Assembly: GCA_016235675.1 (NCBI GenBank)
Contig: JACRJN010000131.1
Coordinates: 1,779 to 65,778 of the forward strand
From: Candidatus Schekmanbacteria bacterium
Lineage (GTDB): Bacteria; SZUA-182
Direction of reading: 5' to 3'
Length of the DNA: 64,000 nt
Positions 2,361-61,490 of the stretch are shown here, one piece after another (position 1 is the stretch's first letter; every line of letters begins with the position of its first letter). The position numbers were made by a program, and so were the translations under genes. The notes under the pieces are model-generated. The model saw only the letters and a list, made by a program, of their open reading frames with translations, ran no database searches and had not been told where the DNA came from.

Positions 2361-4112
2361 ATGCAGGCAGGAAAAATAATCAAAGTGGCTGGCCCTTTGG
2401 TGGTTGCCGACGGCATGGTTGACGCCAAGATGTATGACGTGGTCAAAGTCGGCCTTGAGGAACTGATCGGCGAGATTGTGGAAATCAAAGGCGATAAAGC
2501 CTCGATTCAGGTCTACGAGGAAACGGGAGGCATCGGCCCCGGCGATCCGGTGATCACTACCGGTATGCCGCTTAGCGTCGAGTTAGGCCCCGGATTGCTG
2601 CAAAGCATTTACGACGGTATTCAGCGCCCGCTGGAATTGATCTACGGCAAGGTCGGGGATTTGATCACCCGCGGGGTTAACGTCCCCAGCCTGAATCGGG
2701 AAAAGAAATGGGCGTTTACTCCGACTGGCAAAACGGGTGATAAGGTGCAGGCCGGGGATATTTTGGGCACGCTGCCGGAAACCAGGGTTATTACCCATAA
2801 GGTGCTGGTTCCGCCCGGAATCGAGGGAGAGATCGTTAAGATTGCGGCAGGCGGCGAATACACCATTACCGATACCATCGCCCGCATTAAAACCAAAAAC
2901 GGTGAACAGGATATTTGTATGCTGCAAAAGTGGCCGGTGCGTATCAGCCGTCCCTTAAAGGGTAAGCTTTCGCCCAAAGAGCCGCTTTCCACCGGACAGC
3001 GCATTATCGACACCCTCTTTCCCCTGGCCAAGGGCGGAACGGCTTGTGTTCCCGGCCCCTTCGGTTCAGGCAAGACCGTAGTGCAGCATCAGTTGGCCAA
3101 ATGGGCATCTGCCGAGATTGTGGTTTATATCGGCTGCGGCGAGCGCGGCAACGAGATGACCGACGTTTTGATCGAACTGCCGGAGATCGAAGACCCCAGA
3201 ACCGGTGAATCGCTGATGCAGCGCACCGTTTTGATCGCCAACACCTCAAACATGCCGGTGGCCGCCCGTGAAGCCTCGGTCTATACCGGGATCACCCTGG
3301 CCGAATATTACCGCGATATGGGCTACCATGTGGCGCTGATGGCTGATTCCACCTCCCGCTGGGCGGAAGCCTTGCGCGAGATGTCGGGACGTCTGGAAGA
3401 GATGCCCGGAGAAGAAGGCTATCCGGCTTATCTGGCGACCAAGATCGCCGATTTCTACGAGCGCGCCGGTCGGGTCAACACCCTGGGCAGCAACGGCAGA
3501 GAGGGATCGATCAGCGTTATCGGAGCGGTTTCCCCTCCCGGCGGCGACATGTCCGACCCGGTGGTGCAGGCCACCCTCAAGGTGGTTAAGGTCTTCTGGG
3601 GGCTGGACGCCAATTTAGCCTACCGCCGGCATTTCCCCGCCATCAACTGGCTGCAAAGCTATTCACTGTATATGGACAACCTCAAGGATTACCTGACCGG
3701 AGAAATTGCCCGCGACTGGGTCACCATCCGCCAGAAAGCCATGGCGCTGTTACAGAAAGAGGCGGAACTGGAAGAAATCGTACGACTAATCGGCAAGGAC
3801 TCCCTCTCCCCTACCGATCAGCTAACCCTGGAAATCACCAAGATCATCCGCGAGGATTTTCTGCATCAGAACGCCTTCCACGCCCAGGACTCCTACACCT
3901 CGCTGAACAAGCAATATAACTTGCTGAAGCTGATTCTCACCGCCGAAGAACTGTTCCGCTCCGCAGTCGAAGCCAAAATTCCCTTAAAGCGCATCCTCTC
4001 CATCCCGGCCCTGGAAGAAATCGCCAAAGCCAAGTTTATCACCGAAGACAAACCGGAGGAGATCGAAGCCATCGGGCAGAGATTGAGGGAGCAGGTAGGG
4101 GGGTTGAAGTAA
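2361..4112 (+). CDS. atpA: V/A-type ATP synthase catalytic subunit A
   Basis: 583 aa with Walker A 'GPFGSGKT' and conserved A-subunit blocks; an RBS is present. Confidence 0.95.
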   Translation: MQAGKIIKVAGPLVVADGMVDAKMYDVVKVGLEELIGEIVEIKGDKASIQVYEETGGIGPGDPVITTGMPLSVELGPGLLQSIYDGIQRPLELIYGKVGDLITRGVNVPSLNREKKWAFTPTGKTGDKVQAGDILGTLPETRVITHKVLVPPGIEGEIVKIAAGGEYTITDTIARIKTKNGEQDICMLQKWPVRISRPLKGKLSPKEPLSTGQRIIDTLFPLAKGGTACVPGPFGSGKTVVQHQLAKWASAEIVVYIGCGERGNEMTDVLIELPEIEDPRTGESLMQRTVLIANTSNMPVAAREASVYTGITLAEYYRDMGYHVALMADSTSRWAEALREMSGRLEEMPGEEGYPAYLATKIADFYERAGRVNTLGSNGREGSISVIGAVSPPGGDMSDPVVQATLKVVKVFWGLDANLAYRRHFPAINWLQSYSLYMDNLKDYLTGEIARDWVTIRQKAMALLQKEAELEEIVRLIGKDSLSPTDQLTLEITKIIREDFLHQNAFHAQDSYTSLNKQYNLLKLILTAEELFRSAVEAKIPLKRILSIPALEEIAKAKFITEDKPEEIEAIGQRLREQVGGLK

Positions 4113-16007: not shown

Positions 16008-16115
16008 TTCACTTAACGTAGCGCAGGGCTTTAGCCCTGCTTATGGGGTGGCTTCGGCGGGAACGAAGGAGCAGACCTAAAGGTCTGCACTACGTTAAGT
16101 GAACAGTCTTTAATT
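16008..16115. repeat. Family A REPIN-like element (GTAGCGCAGGGCTTTAGCCCTGC / GCAGACCTTTAGGTCTGCGCTAC, outer CTGTTCACTTAA TIR)
   Basis: Other copies lie at 16876..16951, 21590..21828, 57137..57265 and 59815..59985. Confidence 0.85.
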
Positions 16116-16335: not shown

Positions 16336-18923
16336 TAAATAACAATATTAACCAGCTTTCCGCCGGCAACTATTACCTTGCGGATTGGCTTGCCTTGGAT
16401 AAATTCCCGGATGCGGGCATCTGATAAGGCGGATTGTTTGATCGTCTCTTCCCCCGCGTCTTTAGGCAGGTTGATCTTGCTGCGTAATTTGCCGTTAATC
16501 TGGATGACGACGGTGACCTCATCCTCGCTGGCGATGGCTTCATCGTAAACCGGCCAGGGCTGCTGGCTGATACTGGCGGGATAGCCCAATGTCCGCCACA
16601 ATTCCTCGCTGATATGGGGGGCGAAGGGGGCAAGCAGTAATAACACACTGCGTAAAGCCTCCTTCAAGACTAAATAAGCCTCATCATCCTTCGGTTCGAA
16701 CTGATAGAGGGTGTTGACCAGTTCCATCACGGCGCTGATGGCGGTGTTGAAGTGGAAGCGGTCTTCGATGTCCCGGCCTACCTTGCGGATGGTTTGATGC
16801 ACCCGGCAGCGCAATTGTTTGTTGGCCGGGGTCAACTGGACGGGAATCAGATCATTGCCGATCGCCGTCAATTTTTCACCTGAAGATGTCGTAGCGCAGG
16901 GCTTTAGCCCTGCCTCCCCGGTAGCAGACCTAAAGGTCTGCGCTACATGTTTATTGTTCTTGGTATCCCGAAGAGACATAGGTGTTTCGGCATAGGTATT
17001 GACCAGCCGCCAGACCCGTTGCAGGAAGCGGTAAGAGCCTTCCACCCCTTCCTCGCTCCAATCCAAATCCTTTTCCGGCGGGGCGGCAAACAAGGAAAAG
17101 AGGCGCGCCGTGTCTGCTCCGTACTTTTCCAGCAAATCATTGGGATCAACTACATTACCCTTGGATTTGCTCATCTTCGCCCCATCCTTGATAACCATGC
17201 CTTGAGTAAGCAGGTTAGTGAAGGGTTCGTCATAAGTCAAGTAGCCCAAATCACGCAAAACTTTGTTGAAAAAGCGGGCATAAAGTAAGTGCAGCACGGC
17301 ATGTTCGATCCCGCCCACATATTGATCCACCGGCAGCCAGTAATTGACCGCTTTTTCATCAAAAGCGGCATTAGTTAACCGGGGAGATGTGTAGCGGGCA
17401 AAGTACCAGGAGGATTCGACAAAGGTATCCAGGGTATCGGTCTCCCGTTTAGCCGGTTTACCGCAGGCCGGACAGTCGGTATTGACGAATTCGGCGATCG
17501 AAGGCAAAGGGGAATGGCCGTCTTCGGGAAATGCCGTATGGGTGGGCAGAACTATCGGTAACCGTTCCGCTTGCTCCGGAACGGTTCCGCAAGCATCGCA
17601 ATAAACTATCGGAATGGGCGCACCCCAGAAGCGCTGGCGGGAGATGCCCCAATCGCGCAGACGATAATTGACCTTACGGCAGCCGATCTCGGCCTTCTCC
17701 ATAAAATCGGCGATCGCTTCGCGGGCTTGTGGGCTGGTCAGGCCACTAAATTGACCGCTGTTGACCAGATTGCCATCGTCTACATAGGCTTCGGTCATTG
17801 TTTCCGCTTGCAATGCACCATCAGTGGGTTGAATTACCACCCGCAAGGGGATATTGTACTTGCGGGCGAATTCAAAATCCCGCTGGTCATGAGTGGGCAC
17901 AGCCATAACCGCCCCGGTGCCGTAACCCATCAGGACGAAGTTAGCCAGATAGACCGGAATATACTCCTGGGTCATCGGATTGAGGACGTAGCAGCCGCAG
18001 AATATGCCCTCCTTTTCCGGCTCCGCCTGACCGCGCTGCTGTACCCGGTGGCTTTTCTTGAAATTCTCCACAAAGATTTGTAACGTTTCAGGATTTGGGC
18101 AATGCTGTCTGATTATGTCCACTAAAGGGTGTTCGGGGGAAATGGAAACAAAGGTAGCGCCGAAAATAGTATCGACACGGGTGGTAAAGACGGTCAGCGA
18201 TTCGCCTAAGCCTTTGAGTGGAAACTTGATCTCCATCCCCTGGCTTTTGCCGATCCAGTTGCGCTGCATCATTAATACCTTTTCCGGCCAGCCGGGTAGC
18301 TGATCAGTAAACTTGAGCAGTTCGTCGGCATAGGCGGTGATGCGGAAAAACCAGCTTTCCATCGCCCGCGGCTCAACCACACTGGAACAGCGCCAGCACA
18401 AGCCCTCCTCCACCTGCTCGTTAGCCAGAACGGTCTGGCAGGAAGGGCACCAGTTGACCGGGGAAAGCTTTTTGTAGACCAACCCCTTCTCATACATCTG
18501 CAAGAAGAATTGCTGCTCCCAGCGGTAATAATCCGGCAGACAAGTCGCCAATTCCCTATGCCAGTCGTAGCTATAACCCATTCGTTTCAATTGACCGCGC
18601 ATATAATCGATATTGCTTGCCGTCCATTTGGCCGGATGGCTCTTATGGGCAATGGCCGCATTCTCCGCCGGCAGCCCGAAAGCGTCCCACCCCATCGGAT
18701 GCAGAACGTTAAAGCCCTTCATCCTCTTGTAACGGGCGATCACATCCCCGATCGAGTAATTACGCACATGCCCCATATGAATCCGCCCGGAGGGATAGGG
18801 AAACATCTCCAATAAGTAGTATTTGGGAAGATTAGGGTCTTCCGTCACCCGGAAAATCCGCTCCCTCTCCCAATACTCCTGCCATTTGGCCTCGATTTCT
18901 TTATGCTGATAATGCTGATTCAT
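16335..18923 (-). CDS. leuS: Leucine--tRNA ligase
   Basis: 862 aa with HMGH ('HMGHVRNY') and KMSKS motifs. It contains an in-frame family A repeat at 16876..16951. Confidence 0.95.
16876..16951. repeat. Family A REPIN-like element embedded in-frame in leuS
   Basis: 'gtagcgcagggctttagccctgcctccccggtagcagacctaaaggtctgcgctac' lies inside the leuS reading frame. It is translated as '..[21 protein letters not shown]..'. Confidence 0.85.
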
Positions 18924-20356: not shown

Positions 20357-20484
20357 TAATTGAGGCACTTTTCTTGCAGTAACATTGCTAACTATAAATT
20401 AACGGTACAGGCTTGTAACGGGGGGCTGGTTTTTTTCGAGCCTCGCAAGCCTGGAAACAGCAAATTTCAAACAGGAGGTTCGGA

Positions 20485-21495
20485 ATGGAAGGACAAACAT
20501 TAAGCTTGGCAGCGCATTTGCGGGACGAGCAAAAAAAGAATCCCAAAATCACCAATGGATTGATTAGTTTGTTGGGCGAGATGGCCTCAGCGTCCAAAGC
20601 TATTTCCCGCGACGTTAACCGGGCGGGATTGGTGGGTATTCTGGGACTGGCCAACAAGGTCAATGTCCAGGGGGAGGAAGTAAAAAAACTGGACGAATAC
20701 TCCAATGAGATCGTCAGAGCGCAGATGAGCAAAAGCGGGCAGGTTTGCATCATGGCCTCGGAGGAAGTCGATAACTCCATGCCGGTCGATGAGGGCTGCG
20801 AAGGCCCGTATACCATTGCCTTCGATCCGCTGGACGGCTCATCCAATATCGACGTGAACGTCAGTATCGGCACCATCTTCTCTATCCATCACAAGATCAG
20901 CCCCGGCACAAAGGGAACCGATGATGATTTGCTGCAACCGGGCAATAAGCAGGTCTGCGCAGGCTACGTACTGTACGGCTCAAGCACCATGCTGGTCTAT
21001 ACCGCGGGCTCTGGTGTACACGGCTTTACCCTGGATCAGGGCGTGGGCGAATTCTATCTGTCCCATCCCAACATGCAGATCAAGCCCAAGGGGGATATTT
21101 ACAGCATCAACGAGGGGAACTACCTCTATTGGGACAAAAACACCCAAAAATATATCGACTACCTGAAGGCCGAAGACAAGGCCACCAAGCGGCCCTATAA
21201 GGCGCGCTATGTCGGATCACTGGTGGCCGATTTCCACCGCACCCTGATCTACGGCGGCTTGTTCCTCTACCCCATGGACTACAAAGACCCGCAAAAGCCC
21301 AAGGGCAAGCTGCGCCTTCTATACGAAGCCGCACCCATGGCCTACGTCGTCCAGCAGGCCGGAGGCTACGCCAGCACCGGTTTTGAAGCGATCCTGGATA
21401 TTAAACCGACCGGACTGCATCAACGGGTGCCGCTAATCATCGGCAGCGTGGAGGATGTGAAGCAGGCGGAGAAATTTATTCAGAGGAAGGCGTAA
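20485..21495 (+). CDS. fbp: Fructose-1,6-bisphosphatase class 1
   Basis: 336 aa with conserved FBPase class I blocks and a strong RBS. Confidence 0.9.
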   Translation: MEGQTLSLAAHLRDEQKKNPKITNGLISLLGEMASASKAISRDVNRAGLVGILGLANKVNVQGEEVKKLDEYSNEIVRAQMSKSGQVCIMASEEVDNSMPVDEGCEGPYTIAFDPLDGSSNIDVNVSIGTIFSIHHKISPGTKGTDDDLLQPGNKQVCAGYVLYGSSTMLVYTAGSGVHGFTLDQGVGEFYLSHPNMQIKPKGDIYSINEGNYLYWDKNTQKYIDYLKAEDKATKRPYKARYVGSLVADFHRTLIYGGLFLYPMDYKDPQKPKGKLRLLYEAAPMAYVVQQAGGYASTGFEAILDIKPTGLHQRVPLIIGSVEDVKQAEKFIQRKA

Positions 21496-21589: not shown

Positions 21590-21828
21590 TATTAAGACGT
21601 AGCGCAGGGCTTTAGCCCCAATACTGTTCCCCTAACGTAGCGCAGACCTTTAGGTCTGCTCCGGAGTGCTCACAAAGCCACCCCATAAGCAGGGATAGAA
21701 GCCCTGCGCTACGTCTTAAGTGAACGGTATTGGCTTTAGCCCTGCTTCCGGACACACATCAAACCCGGTAGCCGGTAGCAGACCTAAAGGTCTGCACTAC
21801 GTTAGGGGAACAGTAAAGGGGCGGCTAT
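21590..21828. repeat. Two interleaved family A REPIN-like elements
   Basis: The GTAGCGCAGGGCTTTAGCCC / GCAGACCTTTAGGTCTGC units are repeated twice with CTTAAGTGAACAG outer repeats. Confidence 0.8.
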
Positions 21829-29866: not shown

Positions 29867-29950
29867 CTTTGGTAGCACAGGCTTCCCATCCTGTGACACA
29901 GGCAAGATGCCTGTGCTACCGGAGGCAGGGATAAAGCCCTGCGCTACGAC
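29867..29950. repeat. Family C/A hybrid GTAG element
   Basis: 'ggtagcacaggcttcccatcctgtgacacaggcaagatgcctgtgctaccgg..cagggataaagccctgcgctacg'. Confidence 0.75.
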
Positions 29951-35851: not shown

Positions 35852-37412
35852 CTAACTTCCTTCTTTGGTAGCACAGGCTGGAAGCACATGACACAGGCTG
35901 GAAGCCTGTGTTACCGGATGCAGGGCTGAAGCCCTGCGCTACACTTTTTTGCCTCCCGGTTAAAAGCCTCCCTTTAGCTTTAACAGTAATTCCGGCCATG
36001 ATCCAAAAATAAGCCGTTAATTCATTGGAAAAAAAGCGCGCTCCCGATAAATCCAATAAAAACAGGGCGATGACACAACCCAGTAGCCCGCCGGCCAGCG
36101 CCTTAATGTAGGGATCGTCCGTCTGGCGCATTACCTGCCGGGCACTAAAAAAAACAGCCGCCAAAATCCATAAATACAAAATTAACCCGACGATTCCTTC
36201 CTCGACTGCAATCCAAATAAACGAACTATGAGCCGCTTTGGGAAACGGAAGCACCCCACATCTGACCACCACTTCCTGGAATGTTTCAAAACCCGTACCC
36301 AAGATGGGGGCTTCGGCCATCATCCGCGGCAATCCTTTCCACTGGCGTAGCCTCAATTCTGTGGAATTATCGTATTGCTGATTTTCATATTTTCCCTGCA
36401 CCCCTTCTTCCAGAAAGGTATCGTCTACCCGTTCTTCTACCGCCGGCGGCGGATGCACCAAGATCACAACTAAAGCCAACAACATAAATAAAAGCAGGCG
36501 CTTATCTTTAACCAGTCCCAGGAACAAAAGACTGGCCAAACAGGCCAGCCAGGAACCGCGGGATAAGGTGGTAAACAAGGCCAGAAAACATAAACCGGTA
36601 CCCGCTAAAAGCAGGTAATGCCGTTTGGAGGGCAGTTTCAGATATAAAGAGCAAATAAATAGCGGGGTATACATAGCCAGAAAGCCGCCATATAAATTAG
36701 GCTGATCCCCGATTACCCCGCCTCCGTTTCTGTTCCGCTCGATATAATCCGCTATTCGAAAAAAATCTTTTAACGAAAGTATTACGATAATTCCGATCGT
36801 TACTAAAAGAAAAATCAACAAACGGCGGCTATAATGCAAATCGTAAGATTTTAAGGTGATGAAATATAAAGAAACATAAATAAGCCAATTTTTAGCGACA
36901 CTTAAGCGTTCAACATCCGAACAATACGCGGAAGGCATCCTGAAAATGGATAATAAAGTAAAAAATACAAGCAGATAAACAGGTATTTTTAACGGATCGC
37001 ATCTCGAATTTTCTTGCGGCTGCTTTTGGGAAAACACGCCAAGAAATAAAATGGCCACAATAATAGTTTGGGCGTTTATTCCGGTTATGCCGAAAAAATC
37101 AGGGGGAAAGAGGTCTAAAATCGGCATAAAAAAGATAAAAAAACAAACCGCTAAATCGATTCTTACAAAGGCCAAATAAGTCCAAAAAATACCCAGGGAA
37201 AACCCTAAGAAAATCTTTACCGGATAATAAGGCAAAAATATCGCGCAAATTACCGCCGCCACAAGAACCGATAAACTTGTTTTTTCAAACCGATCAACCG
37301 AAGAGACATCAGATTTGCCGGATGTTTCGGTTGGATTTAAATAATTTAATTGATACACAGGTGAAGTGTCCACAACTTTCCTCAGTGCTATGAAATACGA
37401 CAAAACTCCCAT
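35760..37412 (-). CDS. O-antigen ligase / polymerase (Wzy-like) polytopic membrane protein
   Basis: About 10 TM helices and a large periplasmic loop. The ORF reads through the repeat at 35865..35945 and ends inside the next gene. An internal start near 37412 is preferred. Confidence 0.6.
   Translation of the reverse strand: MGVLSYFIALRKVVDTSPVYQLNYLNPTETSGKSDVSSVDRFEKTSLSVLVAAVICAIFLPYYPVKIFLGFSLGIFWTYLAFVRIDLAVCFFIFFMPILDLFPPDFFGITGINAQTIIVAILFLGVFSQKQPQENSRCDPLKIPVYLLVFFTLLSIFRMPSAYCSDVERLSVAKNWLIYVSLYFITLKSYDLHYSRRLLIFLLVTIGIIVILSLKDFFRIADYIERNRNGGGVIGDQPNLYGGFLAMYTPLFICSLYLKLPSKRHYLLLAGTGLCFLALFTTLSRGSWLACLASLLFLGLVKDKRLLLFMLLALVVILVHPPPAVEERVDDTFLEEGVQGKYENQQYDNSTELRLRQWKGLPRMMAEAPILGTGFETFQEVVVRCGVLPFPKAAHSSFIWIAVEEGIVGLILYLWILAAVFFSARQVMRQTDDPYIKALAGGLLGCVIALFLLDLSGARFFSNELTAYFWIMAGITVKAKGRLLTGRQKSVAQGFSPASGNTGFQPVSCASSLCYQRRKLDGKTKDSLYQHISGIGIYSAGDAGISQSGN
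35865..35945. repeat. Family C/A hybrid GTAG element, translated at the 3' end of the Wzy-like ORF
   Basis: 'ggtagcacaggctggaagcacatgacacaggctggaagcctgtgttaccggatgcagggctgaagccctgcgctac'. Confidence 0.8.
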
Positions 37413-45500: not shown

Positions 45501-45866
45501 AAATCGGTTACCTCTTTGATTTCATAAATCCCCCCCCTCTTTAAAATTGCGTTTTTAAGTTATGAAATCTCAATTAAATAATCCACGATGTTAAAGATAT
45601 TCAAATTCTATATGATGTTTATATATGTGTCAAGAAAAAAAGTAGTCATAACCAACAATTAGTGTAATTTTTTGGTTAATTCGGATATTATTATCATGTT
45701 ATAACTAATTATTATAGTAGTTTTATATAAACTATGTGCAGTAGTTATAATATATTTTATGACATATACTGACGAAAGATTATCTATACTCTGAATAAGG
45801 GATAGGCTATAATGTCTTTTAAAAGGTGCTCCTCTTTTATCCACTCGTTTATTTTGAGGATAAACA

Positions 45867-46103
45867 ATGATTATTAAAAAAAATATTCAAAAGGAAACAT
45901 CGTTGGAATTGCCTTGGCATTTATTAGAAAAAGCCCATCTTAAGGGGAAAATAAATATTATTGTGGAAGAAAATGAAATCCTGATTAAAAAACAAACTAA
46001 AAAATCTAAGGTTGTCGATGAAATGATCGGTCTGGGAAAGGGTATTTTTAGTGAAAACTCGCTAACTCTTCAGAAAAAAATTCGGGAGGATTGGAAACTG
46101 TGA
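45867..46103 (+). CDS. Putative antitoxin (VapB-like) of a PIN-domain TA pair
   Basis: 78 aa; its 3' end overlaps the PIN gene. No strong domain signature was recognised. Confidence 0.4.
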   Translation: MIIKKNIQKETSLELPWHLLEKAHLKGKINIIVEENEILIKKQTKKSKVVDEMIGLGKGIFSENSLTLQKKIREDWKL

Positions 46104-46531
46104 AAAGAATTGGTCTCGATACCAATATTTTTATGAGCGTTTTTTTGGAAGAAAAGGGGAAATTAGAAGCTTGCCTGGCGATTTTACAAAATATTCATGA
46201 CGGTATTCTGGAAGGGATTATCAGTGTAATTACATTAGTAGAAATAGCCGTACTTTTTTACCAAAAAAATGAATATCTAAAAGCTAAGAAAGCCTTATCC
46301 CTTATCAACTCTCTTTCAAATATTGCCATTATTGACATAACTCCACATTTGGCTTTAAAAATAGCTGCTATAAAAACTTCAGATAAATTATCTGTTGCGG
46401 ATGCAATTATTCTTGCCACAGCGGTACACGCATCTGCGGAAGCTTTTTTAACGTATGACCATGACTTTGCCAAAGTAAAAACCATCAGGTGCATTAAACC
46501 GGAAGATTATCTTCAAGAGATGAATATTTGA
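46100..46531 (+). CDS. PIN-domain ribonuclease (VapC-like toxin)
   Basis: 'IGLDTNIF' N-terminal acidic motif and a 'TYDHDF' C-terminal motif. Confidence 0.75.
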   Translation: MKRIGLDTNIFMSVFLEEKGKLEACLAILQNIHDGILEGIISVITLVEIAVLFYQKNEYLKAKKALSLINSLSNIAIIDITPHLALKIAAIKTSDKLSVADAIILATAVHASAEAFLTYDHDFAKVKTIRCIKPEDYLQEMNI

Positions 46532-50433: not shown

Positions 50434-51297
50434 GTGAGTCCGGCAGGGAAAACGAATAACATCCAATTGCGCAGCCTATTGCTGATTCTGATATTCTTTA
50501 CCTTTGTCAGCCTGTTGATTCATGACAGTAAGGATATTGGGATGTTCTGGCATTTGTATATAATTCCTCTATATATCGCGGCGGTCTCTTACGGTTTGGC
50601 GGGAGGATTAATAGTAGGAATCTTAAGCACATGCAGCGTTGTGGGCTGGCTCTATGCCTTACAAATGTTCACGCCCCAGCAAGCGGAAAAGTTATGGGAA
50701 ATCGGTATCGGCATGGCTTTGTTTATCGGGACGGGTATAACCTTGGGACATTCATCCGGTAAGCAAAAGGCGCAAAAGGACATGCTGGAGGGGCTTTCCA
50801 TCCGTGACCGCTTGACCGGTTTATTCAATTACGGTTATTTTCTGGATCATCTGGAAAAAGAGCGCAAGCGTGCTCAGCGTTATCAGAATCCCCTATCCGT
50901 TATTATGATCGATGTGGATTTTTTCAAGCGCTTCAACGATACCTTCGGCCATGAAAAGGGCAATGAGGTTTTAAAGCGGGTGGCTAAGGTATTGGTGGAA
51001 AACACCCGCAATGTGGATACGGTAGCGCGCTACGGAGGAGAAGAATTTGTCGTCACCCTGCCTAATGCCACTGCGGAACAAGCTCAAACCGTGGCGGAAA
51101 GAATCCGCGAAGCCGTAGCCTGCGAAACCTTCGAAGGAAATGATCAGCAACCTATCGTCAACGTCACCATCAGCGGCGGTATCGCCGGCTATCCCACTCA
51201 GGCCGAACAGATCGATAAACTGATCTATAAGGCCGATCAAGCCCTCTATTCGTCCAAAGAGAATGGCCGCAACCAAATCCGTATTTTTTCGGAATAA
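50434..51297 (+). CDS. Membrane-anchored diguanylate cyclase (GGDEF domain)
   Basis: The 'RYGGEEF' active site follows 3-4 N-terminal TM helices. It uses a GTG start with a TAGGAGG RBS. Confidence 0.8.
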   Translation: MSPAGKTNNIQLRSLLLILIFFTFVSLLIHDSKDIGMFWHLYIIPLYIAAVSYGLAGGLIVGILSTCSVVGWLYALQMFTPQQAEKLWEIGIGMALFIGTGITLGHSSGKQKAQKDMLEGLSIRDRLTGLFNYGYFLDHLEKERKRAQRYQNPLSVIMIDVDFFKRFNDTFGHEKGNEVLKRVAKVLVENTRNVDTVARYGGEEFVVTLPNATAEQAQTVAERIREAVACETFEGNDQQPIVNVTISGGIAGYPTQAEQIDKLIYKADQALYSSKENGRNQIRIFSE

Positions 51298-53530: not shown

Positions 53531-53545
53531 GTTTCGGTATCCGAT

Positions 53546-53977
53546 ATTATCACCACGAAGAACACGAAGGGCACGAAGAATGGTATGAATAGGATAAAGG
53601 TAAAGAGTGAAGGTAAGGGACTTAGAAGATATTGACATACCCCCCACCCTAACCCTCCCCCGCAAGGGGCATAGGCGCTAACTTAGGCATTTAAAGTTCC
53701 CTCTCCCCCTGGGAGAGGGTTAGGGTGAGGGTACCATAATTTAATTTTTTAAGCTTTTGTACCATCATCCCGACCTTCTCCCAAGGGGAGAAGGAGCCTA
53801 AGTTAGCGCTTATGCCCGCAAGGGGGGAGGGAATTTATCCCCCTCCCCCCTTGATGGGGGAGGGTCGGGGTGGGGGTGATTATCGCGATCCTGAAACGGT
53901 ATGTTTGAAAATTTCAAGTCCCTAAACACCCTTTTCCCTTTTTCCCTTCGTGGCCTTCGTGCTCTTCGTGGTGAATC
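53546..53977. repeat. About 430-bp nested palindrome bounded by CACGAAG heptamer arrays (family E)
   Basis: 'caccacgaagaacacgaagggcacgaag' at 53552 is mirrored by 'cttcgtggccttcgtgctcttcgtggtg' at 53945. Inner pairs are 'cccccaccctaaccctcccc'/'ggggagggtcggggtggggg' and 'gcataggcgctaacttaggc'/'gcctaagttagcgcttatgc'. Confidence 0.8.
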
Positions 53978-55320: not shown

Positions 55321-55385
55321 CAATGGACAATTGACAGTTTTTCGTTATCCATTATCCACTATCCACTATCCACTATCCATTGAAT
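55308..55385. repeat. GACAATTGACAATGGACAATTGACAG + CCATTATCCACTATCCACTATCC 7-bp-periodic repeat
   Basis: Tandem heptamers are directly visible. Related words occur at 41083..41100 and 61505..61545. Confidence 0.7.
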
Positions 55386-55399
55386 TAACAACAATATTT

Positions 55400-57136
55400 A
55401 TGTCCATAAACAAACCTAAAAATTGGGATTTTTACCCCCCGAATCCCGAATTGCAAAAGAAACTCCAATCGGAATTAGGGATAAAATCCCGATTGGCCGA
55501 TCTGATGATCAACCGCGGCATCGAAACCGTCGCCGACGCCGGGATTTTTTTATGGGGGACTTTAGCGGAATTACACAGCCCATTTATCATGAAAGGGATG
55601 ACCACCGCCGCCGGAATCATTCTTAACGCCGTCCGGCAAAAAGATAAAATCTGTGTTTACGGGGATTACGACGTCGATGGATTAACCGGTGTGGCTTTGC
55701 TGTTCAAAACCCTGAGTTCGCTCCAGGCCGACGTGATCTTTTACATCCCCCACCGGCTGGAAGAAGGTTACAGCCTGAATTGTCAGGCGCTGGACGAGAT
55801 CAAAAACGCCTCCGTCAATTTAATCGTAACCGTGGACTGCGGCATCACCTCCTGCAACGAAGTCAATTACGCCAATAAATTGGGGATGCAGGTAATTATC
55901 AGCGACCATCATCAATTGGGAAATAATCTGCCTGCCGCCGCGGCCATTCTCAATCCCTTACAACCCGGATGTCCCTATCCTTTTAAAAAACTGTCCGGCG
56001 TAGGTATTGCCTTGAAATTAGCGCAGGCCATATTGGCGCAATCCGGTTTAATCCGCGAGGCGGCTGATCTTTTAAATAATGATTTGGACCTGGTAGCCCT
56101 GGGAACAATAGCCGATATGGTACCTTTAATGGGGGAAAACAGGATTTTAGTAAAATATGGTCTTAAACAATTGACAAATTCCTCCAAATCAGGTATAAAA
56201 GCATTAAAGCAGGTTACAGGTCTGGCTATTGACCAGGAAGTTAGCGTAGTAGACGTAGCATATAAGCTAGCCCCCCGGTTAAATGCCACCGGCAGAATGA
56301 GCGACCCTCAGCAGGGGTTGGAACTGCTGGTATCCAATAACGACACTGAAAGCGCTAATCTGGCTAAGCAAATAGAAGAAAACAATGTTCAGCGCAAAGC
56401 TATCGAAGGGATAATCCTGGAACAAGCCAGGACGCAATTGCAGCAAGCTATCGAGAACAACGCTCCGCCAAAAGCGATTATTTTAGCGGCCGAGGGCTGG
56501 CATATCGGCGTAATCGGAATCGTCGCCTCCCGCATAGTGGAAGAGTATTTCCGCCCGACGATCATTATCGGGCTTACATCGGGTGTCGGCAAAGGTTCAG
56601 GCCGAAGTATCCGTAACTTGCACCTGCAGCAAGTTTTATTGAAATGTCAGGATTTACTGCTGGAGTTCGGCGGCCATGAAATGGCGGCGGGCTTGAGTAT
56701 TCTGGAAGAAAATATACCCCGGTTCAAAGAGCGCATCAATCAACTGGTGGAAGATTCTTTACAGGAAAACGACTTTATACCCAGCTATAATCTGGACGGC
56801 GTGGTGGAATTAAAAGAGCTGACCTTGTCGTTTTGGCAGGAAATACAATTAATGGAGCCGTTCGGCATAGGCAATCCGGCGCCGTTATATTGTGCACGCC
56901 ATTTAGAAATAATGCCGCCGCTGCGCTTAGTGGGCAATAACCATTTAAAATTGAAGCTCAGGCAAAACGACCTGACTATGGAAGCCATCGGTTTTAATAT
57001 GGGAGATTGGCTCTCATTTTTAAATACTCCGGGCAATAAATCGATAGATGTGATTTTCCGCCCCCAGTTGAATGTCTGGCAAGGCAAAGAGCAATTGCAA
57101 TTGTCCCTGCAGGACATAGTGCAGACCAGGGATTAA
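55400..57136 (+). CDS. recJ: Single-stranded-DNA-specific exonuclease RecJ
   Basis: DHH motifs 'YGDYDVDG' and 'DHH', followed by DHHA1 and OB-fold domains. Confidence 0.85.
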   Translation: MSINKPKNWDFYPPNPELQKKLQSELGIKSRLADLMINRGIETVADAGIFLWGTLAELHSPFIMKGMTTAAGIILNAVRQKDKICVYGDYDVDGLTGVALLFKTLSSLQADVIFYIPHRLEEGYSLNCQALDEIKNASVNLIVTVDCGITSCNEVNYANKLGMQVIISDHHQLGNNLPAAAAILNPLQPGCPYPFKKLSGVGIALKLAQAILAQSGLIREAADLLNNDLDLVALGTIADMVPLMGENRILVKYGLKQLTNSSKSGIKALKQVTGLAIDQEVSVVDVAYKLAPRLNATGRMSDPQQGLELLVSNNDTESANLAKQIEENNVQRKAIEGIILEQARTQLQQAIENNAPPKAIILAAEGWHIGVIGIVASRIVEEYFRPTIIIGLTSGVGKGSGRSIRNLHLQQVLLKCQDLLLEFGGHEMAAGLSILEENIPRFKERINQLVEDSLQENDFIPSYNLDGVVELKELTLSFWQEIQLMEPFGIGNPAPLYCARHLEIMPPLRLVGNNHLKLKLRQNDLTMEAIGFNMGDWLSFLNTPGNKSIDVIFRPQLNVWQGKEQLQLSLQDIVQTRD

Positions 57137-57265
57137 GGTTCACTTAAGACGTAGCGCAGGGCTTTAGCCCTGCTTATGGCGGCTTTGGTAGGCACTCCGG
57201 AGCAGACCTAAAGGTCTGCTCTACGTTAAGTGAACAGTCTGCGCTACGTTAAGTGAACAGTATTG
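57137..57265. repeat. Family A REPIN-like element with a duplicated right end
   Basis: 'cttaagacgtagcgcagggctttagccctgc..gcagacctaaaggtctgctctacgttaagtgaacag' is followed by a second 'gcgctacgttaagtgaacag'. Confidence 0.8.
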
Positions 57266-57288
57266 GGATTAAGGAGGGGTTTGGGGGA

Positions 57289-58773
57289 GTGTTAAAAAAG
57301 CAATTATTTTTTAGATTGTCGCTGGTTGTCGTTTTGGGATTTTATTTTATATGGCCGAATATCTTTTCCTGGGCGCAGGAAGAACCTGCTGCGATAAAAA
57401 CAGACAAACCGGAATTTGTGGAACCGGGTATGAATCCCAATGAGAACATACCCACTATCGATCAATTTGTTGTCCCGTCGGATCTGGCGCCTGCCGTAAA
57501 GGATATGGCGCCGCAAAAAAAAGAATCCGAAGCGGGTAAAAAGATAGAATCCGAAGCGCCGACATTACCCTCCGGCCTTCTCCCGGACAAAACACCGGCA
57601 GCCGCTCCTGTGGCACCGGAGATGCAGCCTACTTTAACGGACTGGAATAAAGAAAATTTACTGAAATCATATAGCGATTTTATGAAAATGATGTCTCCGA
57701 AACGGGATGGGATCAAATTGGAAGCGCAAACAACGGAAGCACAAGATAATCCGATTTGGAAATTTCATAGCTGGCTGCAAGACCAACTGGCAATTATGGA
57801 ACAAACCGGCGGAGAAACCGCCGGCGGCAAAGGCGGCCTGGAAGAACTGTGTTTTGTTTGCCATAACGGTAAATTGGTAGTCAACCCTAACTTCTCCGGC
57901 GATTATACCAGTATCAAGGATGTTTTTCAACTCACCAGCCGCCATCCGGTAAGAGCTGCCGATAAATCCAATTTCTACGATCCGCTGAATCCGGATGACC
58001 CGACCAAATCAGACCCGACCTGGGAACGCAAACTACAATGTACTACCTGCCATAATCCGGCGGTAGTTACCGGAAAAACCAAGGACGGCGGTTATCCCTT
58101 AACCCTGCCTACCGATCCCGAAGTCACCTGGACGCAAAAATTAATCGACGGCTGGCCTACTTTGGATAATCCACCCTGGCCTCATGACACCCCGCCCCGT
58201 CCGATAGTCTACGGGCGCCCCTATGCGGATGATCCCAATCCCGATGTGCCGGGGGACGAAAAATTGGGCCCCGATGCCACGGAATTACCTAATTTTACCT
58301 CCTATTGTCAAACCTGCCACCGGCAAATTTCCGGACGTTACGGCGTGAGCAATAACTATTCCCGCTTAAAATACGATCCGATCCGCTATATCAAGGGAGA
58401 TGGCGGCGGCAATGTTTCAACCCATGGTTTAGCGCGCGGCAGGGAAAGCAATACCCCACATTTAAAATTAAGAGAACCATTCTACTCTTTAAGATGCGAC
58501 GCAGAGGGAAATGTAGTTAACAATCTTTATCTGGCCTGCGTCGATTGCCATGAACCTCATGGCTCTTCCAATGCTTTTTTATTAAGAACGAAGGTAAACG
58601 GTGTAGCGGGTGTAAAAGCCGGGTATGACGGTAAATTTTTTACTTTATGTTCTAAATGTCACATTGTCGCCAATCCCTGGCCGGGCGGGTATCCGCACGG
58701 GTCTCCGGGGGATATGGCGGAAAGATCATGTATCCAGTGCCATAACCATTCATCAGGGGGGGGGCGTTTCTAA
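57289..58773 (+). CDS. Secreted hexaheme c-type cytochrome
   Basis: Six CxxCH motifs (CFVCH, CTTCH, CQTCH, CVDCH, CSKCH, CIQCH) after an N-terminal hydrophobic signal. An AGGAGG RBS precedes the GTG at 57289. Confidence 0.75.
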   Translation: MLKKQLFFRLSLVVVLGFYFIWPNIFSWAQEEPAAIKTDKPEFVEPGMNPNENIPTIDQFVVPSDLAPAVKDMAPQKKESEAGKKIESEAPTLPSGLLPDKTPAAAPVAPEMQPTLTDWNKENLLKSYSDFMKMMSPKRDGIKLEAQTTEAQDNPIWKFHSWLQDQLAIMEQTGGETAGGKGGLEELCFVCHNGKLVVNPNFSGDYTSIKDVFQLTSRHPVRAADKSNFYDPLNPDDPTKSDPTWERKLQCTTCHNPAVVTGKTKDGGYPLTLPTDPEVTWTQKLIDGWPTLDNPPWPHDTPPRPIVYGRPYADDPNPDVPGDEKLGPDATELPNFTSYCQTCHRQISGRYGVSNNYSRLKYDPIRYIKGDGGGNVSTHGLARGRESNTPHLKLREPFYSLRCDAEGNVVNNLYLACVDCHEPHGSSNAFLLRTKVNGVAGVKAGYDGKFFTLCSKCHIVANPWPGGYPHGSPGDMAERSCIQCHNHSSGGGRF

Positions 58774-59774
58774 TGACGAATGAACTTGTGTTCGGCAGTG
58801 GCAGTATCATAGGGAAGAGTAAACCCATCAGGCATCTGTTTGGTCTCATCCCTTATTTGGCTGCCCAGGAAAATCCTGTTTTGATTCAGGGCGAAAGCGG
58901 CACCGGCAAAGAGCTAGTGGCTACCGCCATACATTCTTACAGTCAGCGTTCTCTGTCGCCGCTGATTAAAGTCAACTGTTCCGCCATAGATGAAACCTAT
59001 TTAGATGTCGAGTTATTCGGCGGGGTAAAAGAAACAGGAGAGGGGAAAAAAGAGGTAGCGAAGGGGTTATTCGAAATCGCCGACGGCGGCACAATTCTCC
59101 TGGATTGTATCGATAAATTACCCCCGGCGGGACAGGAAAAGCTCTCCCAGGTAATGAGCGAACATAAAATTCACCCCTTAGGTGTTCCGGAGATTAAGAA
59201 TATTAATGTACGGGTCCTGGCCACCACAGAATCTTCTTTAGCGGAGGCTGTCGGCCAGGGGGCATTTAATGAAGGTTTATACAACCAACTGCAAAATAAT
59301 GTCATCAGTATGCCGGCACTGCGCAAATTCCGGGAAGATATACCCTTGCTTGTCAAGCACTTTGCCACTAAATACAGCAAAAAACATAATAAATCAGTAA
59401 AAGGCATTTCGGCTGAAGCCTTGTCTATCTTGATGGAATACGACTGGCCGGGGAATATCAAAGAATTAGAGGAATGTATCGAGCAGGCTGTGATCATTGA
59501 GGATTTGGAAATCATCCAGGCGCACAGTCTGCCCTATGATTTGTTCCATACGGCGGAAAGCGCCCGTCATCGCCTGGCGGAGGAATATAATCTGCGCCGC
59601 CGCTTGAAGGCATTCGAGCGTCAATTGATCTTGCGCGCTTTAAACGAAACCAAATGGAAGAAGAAAGAAGCCGCTCAGTTAATGGGCATCGATCAGCGCA
59701 ATTTGAGCTATTTCTTAAGAAAGCATCACATTACCGATCCGGCCACCAGGGAAAAAGAGCGCGGGTATCTATAG
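58773..59774 (+). CDS. Sigma-54-activator-like AAA+ protein lacking an N-terminal regulatory domain, with apparently degenerate catalytic motifs
   Basis: Walker A 'GESGTGKE' and a C-terminal Fis-type HTH 'AAQLMGIDQRNLSYFLRK' are present. GAFTGA is replaced by 'VKETGEG' and Walker B DE by 'DC'. The start overlaps the cytochrome stop (TAATG). Confidence 0.7.
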   Translation: MTNELVFGSGSIIGKSKPIRHLFGLIPYLAAQENPVLIQGESGTGKELVATAIHSYSQRSLSPLIKVNCSAIDETYLDVELFGGVKETGEGKKEVAKGLFEIADGGTILLDCIDKLPPAGQEKLSQVMSEHKIHPLGVPEIKNINVRVLATTESSLAEAVGQGAFNEGLYNQLQNNVISMPALRKFREDIPLLVKHFATKYSKKHNKSVKGISAEALSILMEYDWPGNIKELEECIEQAVIIEDLEIIQAHSLPYDLFHTAESARHRLAEEYNLRRRLKAFERQLILRALNETKWKKKEAAQLMGIDQRNLSYFLRKHHITDPATREKERGYL

Positions 59775-59814
59775 CAGGACAGGCGTCCCGCCGGAAATTA
59801 TAAAATATTGTAGG

Positions 59815-60062
59815 GGCGGGGGTTTCCCCCAATGCTGTTGACTTAAGACGTAGCGCAGGGCTTTAGCCCTGCTTAAGACGCGGCATTTGACCCCTGTGGC
59901 TGTAGCAGACCTAAAGGTCTGCGCTACATAAACATCAAAACAAAATTCCTTAAGTCAACAGCATTGGGGGTTTCCCCGCCCTTTAATTAACTTAAGCCGT
60001 AGCCGTAGTGCCAGGGCTTTAGCCCTGGAAATTCAGCCCTAAAGGGCTTTAGACTACGAAAT
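59815..60062. repeat. Family A element nested within a CAATGCTGTTGACTTAAG inverted pair, followed by a family B element
   Basis: Outer 'gggggtttcccccaatgctgttgacttaag' is mirrored by 'cttaagtcaacagcattgggggtttcccc'. The family B copy lies at 59995..60062. Confidence 0.8.
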
Positions 60063-60159
60063 TTAAGAGCTTATCCGTAAATAACCGTTACCTTTGGTTT
60101 CCCCCTTTAGCAAAGGGGGATTAAGGGGGATTTGCAAATTGTAATTTCCATAAAGAATT

Positions 60160-60302
60160 TGGCAGCGTTCTCAATCAGAGACCCAAAGCGTCATTGCGAG
60201 GCAGCCTTATCGCCGAAGCAATCTCATCCACACGCATGGAGATTGCTTCGCTTCGCTCGCAATGACACTTCGGAGTCTCCCTATTTCTACGCTACCAAGA
60301 AT
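60160..60302. repeat. Family D long hairpin with GGCAGCGTTCTC / TCTACGCTACC outer stem
   Basis: Near-identical to the architecture at 8046..8190. Confidence 0.8.
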
Positions 60303-60521
60303 TTAATCTTTTAACAATATGTCGTGTTCGAATAATTCTTAAGGTTAGATTCAATTTGAAAATCTCCCCAACCCCTCTTTGCCAAAGAGGGAAAAGTTAT
60401 TTACGGATATATTCTAAGTCTTTCTATTTCTACGCGACAATTTTTAAATAAATATTCTCTGTGTCTCAGTGGCTCTGTGTGAAAAATTTCTCCTGAATTT
60501 TAATTTAGCACCTACCCCATT

Positions 60522-61490
60522 ATGAAAATAATCTTTTGTGGCACGCCGGAATTTGCCCTCCCCAGCTTAAATACCCTACTGACGTCCAAACATCAGGTTT
60601 TGGCGGTGATTACCCCACCCGATCGCCCCGCAGGCCGGGGTAAAAAGCTCAAACCCTCTGCAATTAAGGAAGCCGCCTCAACTCATAATTTACCCATCTT
60701 GCAGCCGGGAAAAATCGGATCGGCGGATTCGCTGGAAAGCATGCGGCAATTGAATCCCGACGCCTTGGCAGTTGTCGCCTTCGGACAACTTCTCCCCCCC
60801 CCGGTACTGAATTTACCCCGCTACGGATGCATCAATGTCCATGCCTCCCTGCTTCCCAAATACCGGGGAGCGGCTCCCATCAATTGGGCGATCATCCGGG
60901 GGGAAACCCAAACCGGGGTCTGCACCATGCGGCTGGATAAAGGGATGGACACCGGCGATGTTATCTTATGCAAGGCTGTCGATATTAGGTCGGAGGAAAC
61001 CGCCGGAACATTACACGACAAGCTGGCCCCGCTGGGCGCGCAATTATTAGCGGAAACATTGGATCAGATCGAAGCGAATACCGCGCTTTATCATCCTCAA
61101 GACCATAACTCGGCCACCTATGCGCCGCTCTTGGATAAATCGATTACCATCATCGACTGGAAACAAAGCGCCGAACAAATCGACTGCCTGGTGCGCGGGT
61201 TAAATCCCTATCCCGGAGCAAAAACATTTTTGGACGATCTGCCGCTGAAAATTCTTACGGTGGAAATCAGCAAGCTAGCTAGCCCGGCCCTACCGGGACA
61301 AATAATTCAGCAAAATCGACGGCAGGGAATTTTAGTCGCGACAGGCAGCGCTCCCATTTGGCTGAAAACAATTCAGCCGGCCAACCGCCAGCCTATGACC
61401 AGTGGCGATTTTCTTTCCGGATTGCGTGAGTCTTTAATAAATAAGGAATTCCGTAGTCCCAGCCCTTTAGGGCTGAATCTCCAGGGCTAA
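60522..61490 (+). CDS. fmt: Methionyl-tRNA formyltransferase
   Basis: 'MKIIFCGTPEFALPSL' and 'HASLLPKYRGAAPI' are Fmt motifs. The last 12 codons and the stop are provided by the family B repeat. Confidence 0.9.
   Translation: MKIIFCGTPEFALPSLNTLLTSKHQVLAVITPPDRPAGRGKKLKPSAIKEAASTHNLPILQPGKIGSADSLESMRQLNPDALAVVAFGQLLPPPVLNLPRYGCINVHASLLPKYRGAAPINWAIIRGETQTGVCTMRLDKGMDTGDVILCKAVDIRSEETAGTLHDKLAPLGAQLLAETLDQIEANTALYHPQDHNSATYAPLLDKSITIIDWKQSAEQIDCLVRGLNPYPGAKTFLDDLPLKILTVEISKLASPALPGQIIQQNRRQGILVATGSAPIWLKTIQPANRQPMTSGDFLSGLRESLINKEFRSPSPLGLNLQG

Follow-up and report, generated by a model that had tools for sequence, protein, structure and literature searches.

What does a protein with the build of a sigma-54 activator do once the residues for contacting sigma-54 and for hydrolysing ATP appear to be gone? 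The question is raised by two genes at positions 57289-59774 of a 64,000-nt stretch of DNA from a Candidatus Schekmanbacteria metagenome-assembled genome (contig JACRJN010000131.1 of assembly GCA_016235675.1; hereafter the window). A gene for an apparently exported hexaheme c-type cytochrome (494 amino acids, aa; 57289-58773, + strand) is followed there by a gene for a 333-aa protein (58773-59774, + strand) related to bacterial enhancer-binding proteins (bEBPs, or EBPs). Pfam searches, alignments and fold prediction describe the second protein, 100% identical to an NCBI protein of Candidatus Schekmanbacteria, as a domain-minimal, atypical bEBP-like regulator consisting of an AAA+ core, a lid and a Fis-type helix-turn-helix (HTH). 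On its sequence, it probably descends from a PspF-like, domain-minimal sigma-54 activator, is still functional and now acts as a conventional DNA-binding regulator that no longer remodels sigma-54 RNA polymerase. Automatic annotation calls it a 'sigma-54-dependent Fis family transcriptional regulator', in which the sigma-54 dependence is probably mistaken.

Architecture and motif losses of the regulator

An in-frame TAA lies 30 nt 5′ of the regulator ATG with no start codon between them, so the N-terminus cannot be extended. Pfam places Sigma54_activat (PF00158) at aa 12-176 (E = 2.8e-43; 147.9 bits, cut-off 20.2), AAA_lid_14 (PF25601) at aa 186-266 (91.5 bits) and HTH_8 (PF02954) at aa 278-317 (31.4 bits), and finds no N-terminal regulatory or signal-input domain, the AAA+ core beginning at aa 12. 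Domain search and upstream stop agree with a first-pass annotation of this DNA, made from the letters alone, which had described a protein of 333 aa that starts directly at the bEBP AAA+ domain, lacks receiver (REC), GAF and PAS domains and ends in a Fis-type HTH, much as PspF does. The PspF equivalog models give the regulator 209 bits (TIGR02974, cut-off 443.55) and 185.8 bits (NF008622, cut-off 529), and no NCBIfam equivalog model rises above its cut-off, the best being PrdR with 252 against 795 bits.

HMMER alignments to ZraR, NifA and NtrC1, together with a MAFFT alignment that included PspF, gave one unambiguous motif register. Walker A is intact (GESGTGKE, aa 40-47; 58890-58913, + strand; the lysine is PspF K42), as had been noted by eye, and the glutamate-switch Asn (PspF N64) is kept. 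At the tip of the L1 loop, ETGEGK stands in the place of GAFTGA (aa 87-92; 59031-59048, + strand). Walker B, Asp-Glu in PspF (D107-E108), is Asp-Cys (aa 111-112; 59103-59108, + strand), and sensor II reads WPGNIKEL (59445-59468, + strand), with K230 at the position of PspF R227. All three changes had been proposed in the first-pass annotation, and the alignments place them at the same residues. They also disclose losses that it had missed: both arginine fingers are gone from FNEGLYNQL (aa 165-173; 59265-59291, + strand; consensus FRxDLyyRL), where PspF R162 becomes N166 and R168 becomes Q172, and the sensor I Asn (PspF N149) is Glu. A review assigns gamma-phosphate sensing to E108 and the part of trans arginine finger to R168 (R299 in NtrC1). 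A shifted by-eye alignment had been named as one way in which the proposal could fail; when aligned to solved bEBPs and PspF, the GAFTGA, Walker B Glu and arginine-finger positions are indeed non-consensus. One proposed alteration stands only in part. In the region corresponding to RVLQEGxxxRVG, the 'LLRV' Arg is replaced by Gln and 'RVG' reads PLG, but canonical proteins of the subfamily lack the RVG Arg as well, so it is not diagnostic.

The best-conserved part of the protein is its end, where the Fis-type HTH (HTH_8, aa 278-317) and a conserved tail, GIDQRNLSYFLRKHHITDPxTRxxERG, occupy 59604-59774 (+ strand). An AlphaFold2 (AF2) model of the regulator (pLDDT 87.7) keeps the L1 hairpin, which is predicted with confidence, and Foldseek superposes it on the AAA+ domains of NtrC1, ZraR, FleQ and PspF with TM scores of 0.88-0.94 and a root-mean-square deviation (rmsd) of ~2 Å. 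The atypical EBPs NtrX and VpsR are among the top Foldseek matches.

Orthologues and the shift of constraint

The closest relatives of the regulator (P0002-P0006) are 63-68% identical to it and 329-332 aa long. GAFTGA, the R168 equivalent and the 'LLRV' Arg are missing from all six proteins of this clade, which keep the Walker A Lys and each have an L1 tip of their own. Other positions vary. Listed with the window protein first, the residues are C, E, E, Q, N, Q where Walker B has its Glu, N, R, R, R, N, N where PspF has R162, and K, R, K, K, R, R where sensor II has its Arg. A role of Cys112 as a redox or heme sensor was considered and dropped, Cys being found in only one of the six orthologues. 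The next relatives (P0007-P0019), about 50% identical and equally short, are fully canonical, with GAFTGA or GSFTGA, DE and both Arg residues. A frame-shifted fragment of a longer regulator, a possibility that had been left standing earlier, does not fit these lengths: orthologues (329-332 aa) and canonical relatives (332-345 aa) share the same short architecture, and wider relatives span 317-347 aa.

Constraint in the eroded clade is inverted, having moved from the ATPase core to the HTH, opposite to the canonical short relatives. Pairwise identity falls to 0.58 in the AAA core (0.71-0.84 in canonical short relatives) and to 0.25 in L1 (0.72-0.83), while it reaches 0.69 in the lid (0.48-0.62) and 0.82 in the HTH and tail (0.63-0.80). 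Positions that are at least 90% conserved in the canonical proteins and free in the clade lie in the pre-L1/L1 segment, Walker B, the post-Walker B helix, the R-finger, LRER and sensor II. Across four orthologous gene pairs the proportion of synonymous differences (pS) is saturated at 0.82-0.92, against a nonsynonymous proportion (pN) of 0.22 overall (core 0.27, lid 0.17, HTH 0.14); the nonsynonymous distance dN is 0.34 in the core versus 0.15 in the HTH. Low pN against saturated pS therefore indicates that the regulator is maintained, chiefly for its DNA-binding end. It is neither a pseudogene nor a fragment, and it is under purifying selection that is strongest on the HTH.

A neighbour-joining tree of the family, drawn without bootstrap, makes the eroded clade monophyletic and sister to the canonical P0007/P0011, and nests a second GAFTGA-less clade (P0021/22/26/28/29/31/34/41/48) separately among the canonical P0008-P0012. 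From these two separate clades, GAFTGA has probably been lost at least twice in this domain-minimal family, each time independently and starting from a canonical, PspF-like ancestor. In the second clade, L1 reads GSNLTESCE or SAFTGD, some proteins have DK, DM or DR as Walker B, and five of nine have Gly or Ser instead of the sensor II Arg. The second clade has no cytochrome neighbour (locus L008, P0022). A search of genome contigs with the regulator (pattern MEYDWPGN) returned, among the matches listed, only unrelated generic bEBPs at about 40% identity.

The cytochrome-regulator junction

The stop codon of the cytochrome (TAA, 58771-58773) and the start codon of the regulator (ATG, 58773-58775) share one base in TAATG (58771-58775, + strand), an overlap that can be read directly in the window, as the first-pass annotation had done. 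The same TAATG is found in L001 and L003, L004 has TGATG, and in L093 the shared coordinate is the same. A G-rich, Shine-Dalgarno (SD)-like run, AGGGGGGGGG (58755-58764, + strand; GGAGGGGGG in orthologues, four loci aligned), precedes the regulator ATG and falls within the codons for the invariant C-terminal GGGRF of the cytochrome; GGGRF is also invariant in cytochromes that have no regulator downstream. The earlier suggestion to look for homologous pairs elsewhere proved fruitful: pair, one-base overlap and a GGAGGGGGG-like SD recur in each of the five loci that have sufficient flank (window, L001/L002, L003, L004 and L093).

Such tight coupling to a cytochrome had been called unusual. It is real and kept in 5/5 loci, but it is a derived gene order restricted to one small, uncultured sublineage. 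Cytochrome orthologues of 54-64% identity (L089-L092) have no regulator downstream and simply follow recJ, and for that reason the most parsimonious reading is that the regulator was probably appended, in one sublineage, to the 3′ end of a string formed by an rnfC-like gene, recJ and the cytochrome, of which it is the last gene. The alternative is that the regulator may have been lost from the other cytochrome loci. The gene recJ lies directly 5′ of the cytochrome in seven of the eight cytochrome loci with a readable upstream side (window, L001, L003, L089, L091, L092 and L093), at gaps of 11 to ~150 nt (11 nt in L001; the window pair lies within 55331-58773), and this order is also present in genomes without the regulator. 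An rnfC-like flavo/FeS gene is found 5′ of recJ in the window, L001 and L089. The pairing of a gene for a DNA-repair exonuclease with one for a cytochrome is odd and conserved. Just 5′ of the rnfC-like gene of L089, from a genome without the regulator, a small uncalled open reading frame (ORF; ~2470-2940) encodes a signal peptide and four CxxCH motifs; the window has repeats in that place.

Genes on the 3′ side of the regulator vary by locus: fmt; glycosyltransferases; a peroxiredoxin-like gene and a convergent cytochrome b; a convergent Redoxin gene. Pfam scans of the window identify cytochrome, recJ, rnfC-like, fmt and ubiX-like genes as the neighbours, and neither a cytochrome b nor a peroxiredoxin/Redoxin gene downstream of the regulator. 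Elsewhere, an Ni_hydr_CYTB-type membrane cytochrome b is encoded just 3′ of the regulator in L003 (4119-4919, - strand) and L004 (2408-3199, - strand), the two copies being 79% identical, and a peroxiredoxin/Redoxin gene follows in L003 (~3460-3904, + strand) and L093 (2648-3169, - strand). The L003 peroxiredoxin is apparently mis-called or frameshifted, only a 79-aa C-terminal piece having been called. The AhpC neighbours in L003 and L093 drew attention to PexR of Myxococcus as an analogue, which was rejected because PexR is a canonical, GAF-containing sigma-54 activator.

Just 3′ of the regulator stop, a 29-nt inverted repeat (59819-59977, strand not assigned; 90% complementary) surrounds a unit like the repetitive extragenic palindromic (REP) sequences and includes a terminator-like site at 59965. 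It probably marks the end of the transcription unit. In the same place, the orthologous loci have hairpin-plus-T-run sequences that were read by eye as terminators.

Comparison with characterised enhancer-binding proteins

Atypical EBPs are an established class that includes TyrR, PhhR, HupR, HsfA, NtrX, VpsR and the NtrC proteins of Rhodobacter capsulatus and Caulobacter; GAFTGA is absent or altered in them, Walker motifs are often non-consensus, and they act at sigma-70 promoters. With its bEBP homology, altered GAFTGA and non-consensus Walker B, the regulator is, as judged from its motifs, a domain-minimal member of this known class. Pseudo-activators are thus not new, and the novelty is smaller than the first-pass annotation implied.

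VpsR of Vibrio cholerae shares with the regulator a bEBP AAA+ domain, an HTH, the lack of GAFTGA and a Walker B that departs from consensus, and its structure (7v2b) lies close to the regulator model (TMq 0.66). ATPase activity is not detectable in VpsR, which activates sigma-70 RNA polymerase. Unlike the regulator, it has an N-terminal REC domain, is controlled by c-di-GMP and has no cytochrome linkage, and its Walker B reads ND instead of DC. In this connection we note a GGDEF diguanylate cyclase gene at 50434-51297, 7.5 kb 5′ of the regulator; FleQ is another EBP controlled by c-di-GMP. NtrX of Brucella abortus and other Alphaproteobacteria, which acts as a repressor, has a replaced L1 motif (EGxEG...G) that recalls the ETGEG of the regulator, and its full-length structures (5m7n/o/p) are among the best fold matches of the model. 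Sequence identity is only 27-28%, however, and NtrX, as a two-component response regulator, carries REC and has a shortened L1, whereas the L1 of the regulator is of full length and REC is lacking.

TyrR and PhhR are likewise GAFTGA-less bEBP homologues, working as sigma-70-dependent repressor-activators. TyrR binds ligands through ACT and PAS domains and still forms hexamers in an ATP-dependent way; the regulator has no ligand-binding domain, and its score with the TyrR NCBIfam model (159 bits) is far under the cut-off of 576 bits. The GAFTGA-less NtrC proteins of R. capsulatus and Caulobacter have, like it, lost the loop that contacts sigma-54; they have switched to sigma-70 promoters, and that of R. 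capsulatus needs ATP binding but not hydrolysis. Those proteins deleted L1 and keep REC, while here L1 is substituted and REC is absent.

In layout the nearest parallel is PspF (and HrpR/HrpS), with AAA+ and HTH only; PspF aligns with aa 11-241 of the regulator at E ~1e-40. Yet PspF has intact GAFTGA, DE, R162/R168 and R227, all of which the regulator fails, and is a true sigma-54 activator under the control of PspA in trans. No PspA-like or HrpV-like negative regulator is found among the window neighbours, and no PspA-like domain in the related loci. Judged by its sequences, the clade is distinct in having no N-terminal input domain and in the loss of the L1 tip, the trans arginine finger, the Walker B Glu (4/6) and the sensor II Arg (3/6). 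It brings together a PspF-like minimal architecture, ~50%-identical canonical sisters with a near-identical HTH and the widest motif erosion among the proteins compared here, although characterised members (VpsR fingers and sensor II included) were compared without residue-by-residue alignment, so that erosion is not rankable between them and the regulator. Atypical EBPs show how an ATP-driven sigma-54 remodeller is converted into an ordinary transcription factor; the eroded clade and the second erosion event offer a comparative system for asking which AAA+ features become dispensable after remodelling ends and what a retained nucleotide pocket is for.

Sigma-54 promoters and candidate operators

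Scanning with the -24/-12 consensus (TGGCAC-N5-TTGCW) returned, for the canonical relatives, intergenic sites with one or two mismatches pointing toward adjacent genes: TGGCATAATTATTGCT and TGGTACAGCTTATGCA 5′ of a REC-PilZ gene, and TGGCATTTGAATTGCT 5′ of the gene of a canonical relative itself. Canonical short relatives stand 5′ of a REC-PilZ gene in L005 (7024-7491), L006 (3111-3578) and L007 (2892-3657 and 4660-5120). A TATGCRCATA-like palindrome lies 60-110 bp 5′ of two of the three canonical -24/-12 sites (that of L005 and the one before the L007 regulator) and is a candidate enhancer of the subfamily.

Across the window, -24/-12 matches occur at chance expectation. The intergenic sequence AGGCACTTTTCTTGCA (20363-20378), one mismatch from the consensus, precedes a same-strand fructose-1,6-bisphosphatase gene (20485-21495) by 107 nt and is the sole hint of sigma-54 use in the window. 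The 64-kb window and ~90 kb of related loci yielded neither rpoN or an RpoN box nor a second bEBP, a canonical paralogue or a gene with GAFTGA. A simple sigma-70 scan of the recJ-cytochrome spacer gave no convincing + strand promoter, and 56900-60600 has no Rfam family. A half-site match to TATGCRCATA at 45733 was set aside as an operator; it stands beside small ORFs read by eye as a toxin-antitoxin pair and looks like chance.

Weighing the explanations

The first-pass annotation had proposed an ATP-binding, hydrolysis-impaired, sigma-54-noncontacting pseudo-activator, possibly a DNA-binding repressor or anti-activator. The motif pattern, the intact fold, the selection on lid and HTH and the lack of -24/-12 sites in the flanks are consistent with that proposal. 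Nucleotide binding without hydrolysis is suggested because Walker A and the glutamate-switch Asn are kept while the catalytic and contact residues are lost; from sequence we infer ATP binding, the lack of hydrolysis and a role as repressor or anti-activator alike. In the mechanism that we favour, the regulator would go on binding nucleotide as a structural or allosteric ligand, with no productive hydrolysis, would bind DNA through its HTH as a dimer or higher oligomer, and would repress or activate sigma-54-independent promoters in the manner of VpsR, NtrX, TyrR and the GAFTGA-less NtrC. Since it has no sensory domain, its dose may be set by translation of the cytochrome message, and its activity could then be a read-out of operon expression or an autoregulatory feedback on it.

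Several observations weigh against this account. P0002 and P0003 keep the Walker B DE and the R162 equivalent, and some members may have residual ATPase. No -24/-12 site is found at up to three mismatches in the flanks of the window pair, L001, L003 and L004 (~2.2 kb in total), which is weak evidence, given that ~0.9 matches at up to two mismatches are expected by chance in ~2.2 kb and targets may lie elsewhere in the genome. TATGCRCATA occurs neither in the window nor in the orthologous loci, no operator or target promoter was identified there, and comparison between loci gave no common motif 5′ of the cytochrome or of the rnfC-like gene. An N-terminal regulatory domain (REC or ACT/PAS) is, to our knowledge, present in every characterised atypical EBP, and as the regulator has none, how its activity is controlled is speculative: the only visible inputs may be dosage by translational coupling or a ligand in the crippled nucleotide pocket. 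The link to the cytochrome may also be gene-order hitch-hiking with no functional meaning.

That last point bears on whether the regulator controls the cytochrome operon (by autoregulation) or partner respiratory and redox genes through translational coupling, which we regard as possible but doubtful. Pair and one-base overlap persist in five of five loci despite differing downstream flanks; those of L003 and L004 include an Ni_hydr_CYTB gene close to the pair, and those of L003 and L093 a peroxiredoxin/Redoxin gene. These redox genes vary in position and orientation, though, and are absent from the window; cytochrome orthologues at 54-64% identity manage without the regulator, the second eroded clade has no cytochrome neighbour, and no shared operator is seen 5′ of the cytochrome or of the rnfC-like/recJ string. 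A bolder version, which we consider a long shot, holds that a sensor-less pseudo-AAA+ regulator, with translational coupling to an exported multiheme cytochrome as its sole input, would read cytochrome translation, or a nucleotide or second messenger bound in its pocket, and would set redox or envelope genes accordingly. If true, this would give the bEBP fold a regulatory logic new to it.

The main rival to our favoured explanation, unlikely as we find it, makes the regulator an anti-activator of a canonical paralogue, damping sigma-54-dependent transcription by occupying the same enhancer sites or as a poison subunit in mixed AAA+ rings, instead of acting at sigma-70 promoters itself. Its HTH recognition region, GIDQRNLSYF[IL][RK]KHHI, hardly differs from that of the canonical short relatives beside -24/-12 promoters, so that it could recognise the same DNA sites; the AAA+ fold is predicted to be intact, and loss of the trans arginine finger (R168) could poison a ring. 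What speaks against it is the lack of any canonical paralogue, rpoN or GAFTGA-containing gene in the 64-kb window and ~90 kb of related loci; the nearest canonical relatives are only ~50% identical, and their candidate enhancer motif is missing from the window and orthologous loci; moreover, characterised GAFTGA-less EBPs act alone at sigma-70 promoters. Very improbable is a protein that still activates sigma-54 through a non-canonical L1 loop, with slow ATP hydrolysis supported by compensating residues. The protein does keep Walker A, the Asp of Walker B and the glutamate-switch Asn, and the model confidently predicts the L1 hairpin scaffold, but the L1 tip differs in each of the six orthologues, a sign of function lost and not gained, the trans arginine finger is lost in 6/6 and the Walker B Glu in 4/6, and no -24/-12 sites are nearby. 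Least credible of all is a decaying gene with no function. A faster-evolving ATPase core (dN 0.34 vs 0.15 for the HTH) and eroded functional motifs would suit it; full-length, intact ORFs in six divergent lineages, pN of 0.22 against saturated pS, an HTH with 82% pairwise identity, the conserved SD and overlap junction and a confidently predicted fold do not.

The hexaheme cytochrome

The cytochrome ORF begins with GTG, 10 nt downstream of a Shine-Dalgarno-like AAGGAGG (57272-57278, + strand) read directly in the sequence, and corresponds to the NCBI model P0121 of Candidatus Schekmanbacteria (100% identity, 100% coverage). As Pfam and orthologue alignments show, its product opens with a helix resembling a signal peptide (aa 1-30), continues as a variable, low-complexity linker up to about aa 110 and ends in a heme domain (aa 111-494) that is highly conserved; among orthologues pN is 0.11 in the heme domain versus 0.53 in the linker. 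All on the + strand and invariant in 20 homologues, the six heme motifs are CFVCH (aa 188-192; 57850-57864), CTTCH (aa 251-255; 58039-58053), CQTCH (aa 340-344; 58306-58320), CVDCH (aa 417-421; 58537-58551), CSKCH (aa 454-458; 58648-58662) and CIQCH (aa 481-485; 58729-58743). Together with an N-terminal hydrophobic helix ending in SWA/QE, read by eye as an export signal and helical in the AF2 model, they are in keeping with the secreted six-CxxCH cytochrome described at first pass. The AF2 model of the whole protein is unusable (pLDDT 40.3, pTM 0.23).

Paired_CXXCH_1 matches the cytochrome with 38.2 bits (Pfam cut-off 20.6), and the named families DmsE/MtrA decaheme, GSU2203 and MtrC/OmcA stay below their cut-offs (TIGR03508, 29.5 vs 192.2 bits; NF041028, 16.7 vs 325). 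A profile search of PDB sequences found no relative. The family is narrow, with ~21 clusters at 90% identity; at E ≤ 1e-30, only 2 representatives were found among 1.84 billion clusters of 50% identity, the remaining matches being local heme-motif stretches. The cytochrome thus belongs to a very narrow, uncharacterised family that regularly follows recJ in Candidatus Schekmanbacteria-like genomes. We found no literature linking Schekmanbacteria to sigma-54 or to multiheme cytochromes.

Repeats and other features of the window

The recJ-cytochrome spacer of the window is filled by REP-like palindromic units (57138-57250, strand not assigned) that are absent from this spacer in orthologous loci. 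They belong to dispersed units resembling REP sequences or miniature inverted-repeat transposable elements (ACGTAGCGCAGGGCTTTAGCCCTGC, GCAGACCTAAAGGTCTGC; 0 expected by chance), with copies at 16016-16088, 16889-16941, 21597-21659, 21778-21795, 29925-29949, 35920-35944, 57138-57250 and 59819-59977 (unit at 59848). Two copies flank the cytochrome-regulator pair, and the orthologous loci are without them.

A second, G/C-rich type of nested palindrome (e.g., CCCTCTCCCCCTGGGAGAGGG and TCCCCCCTTGATGGGGGA) fills the 420-nt spacer before the rnfC-like gene (53531-53950). Within a 1-kb AT-rich gap, two small overlapping + strand ORFs (~45868-46530) look by eye like an AbrB/VapB-type antitoxin and a PIN-domain toxin.

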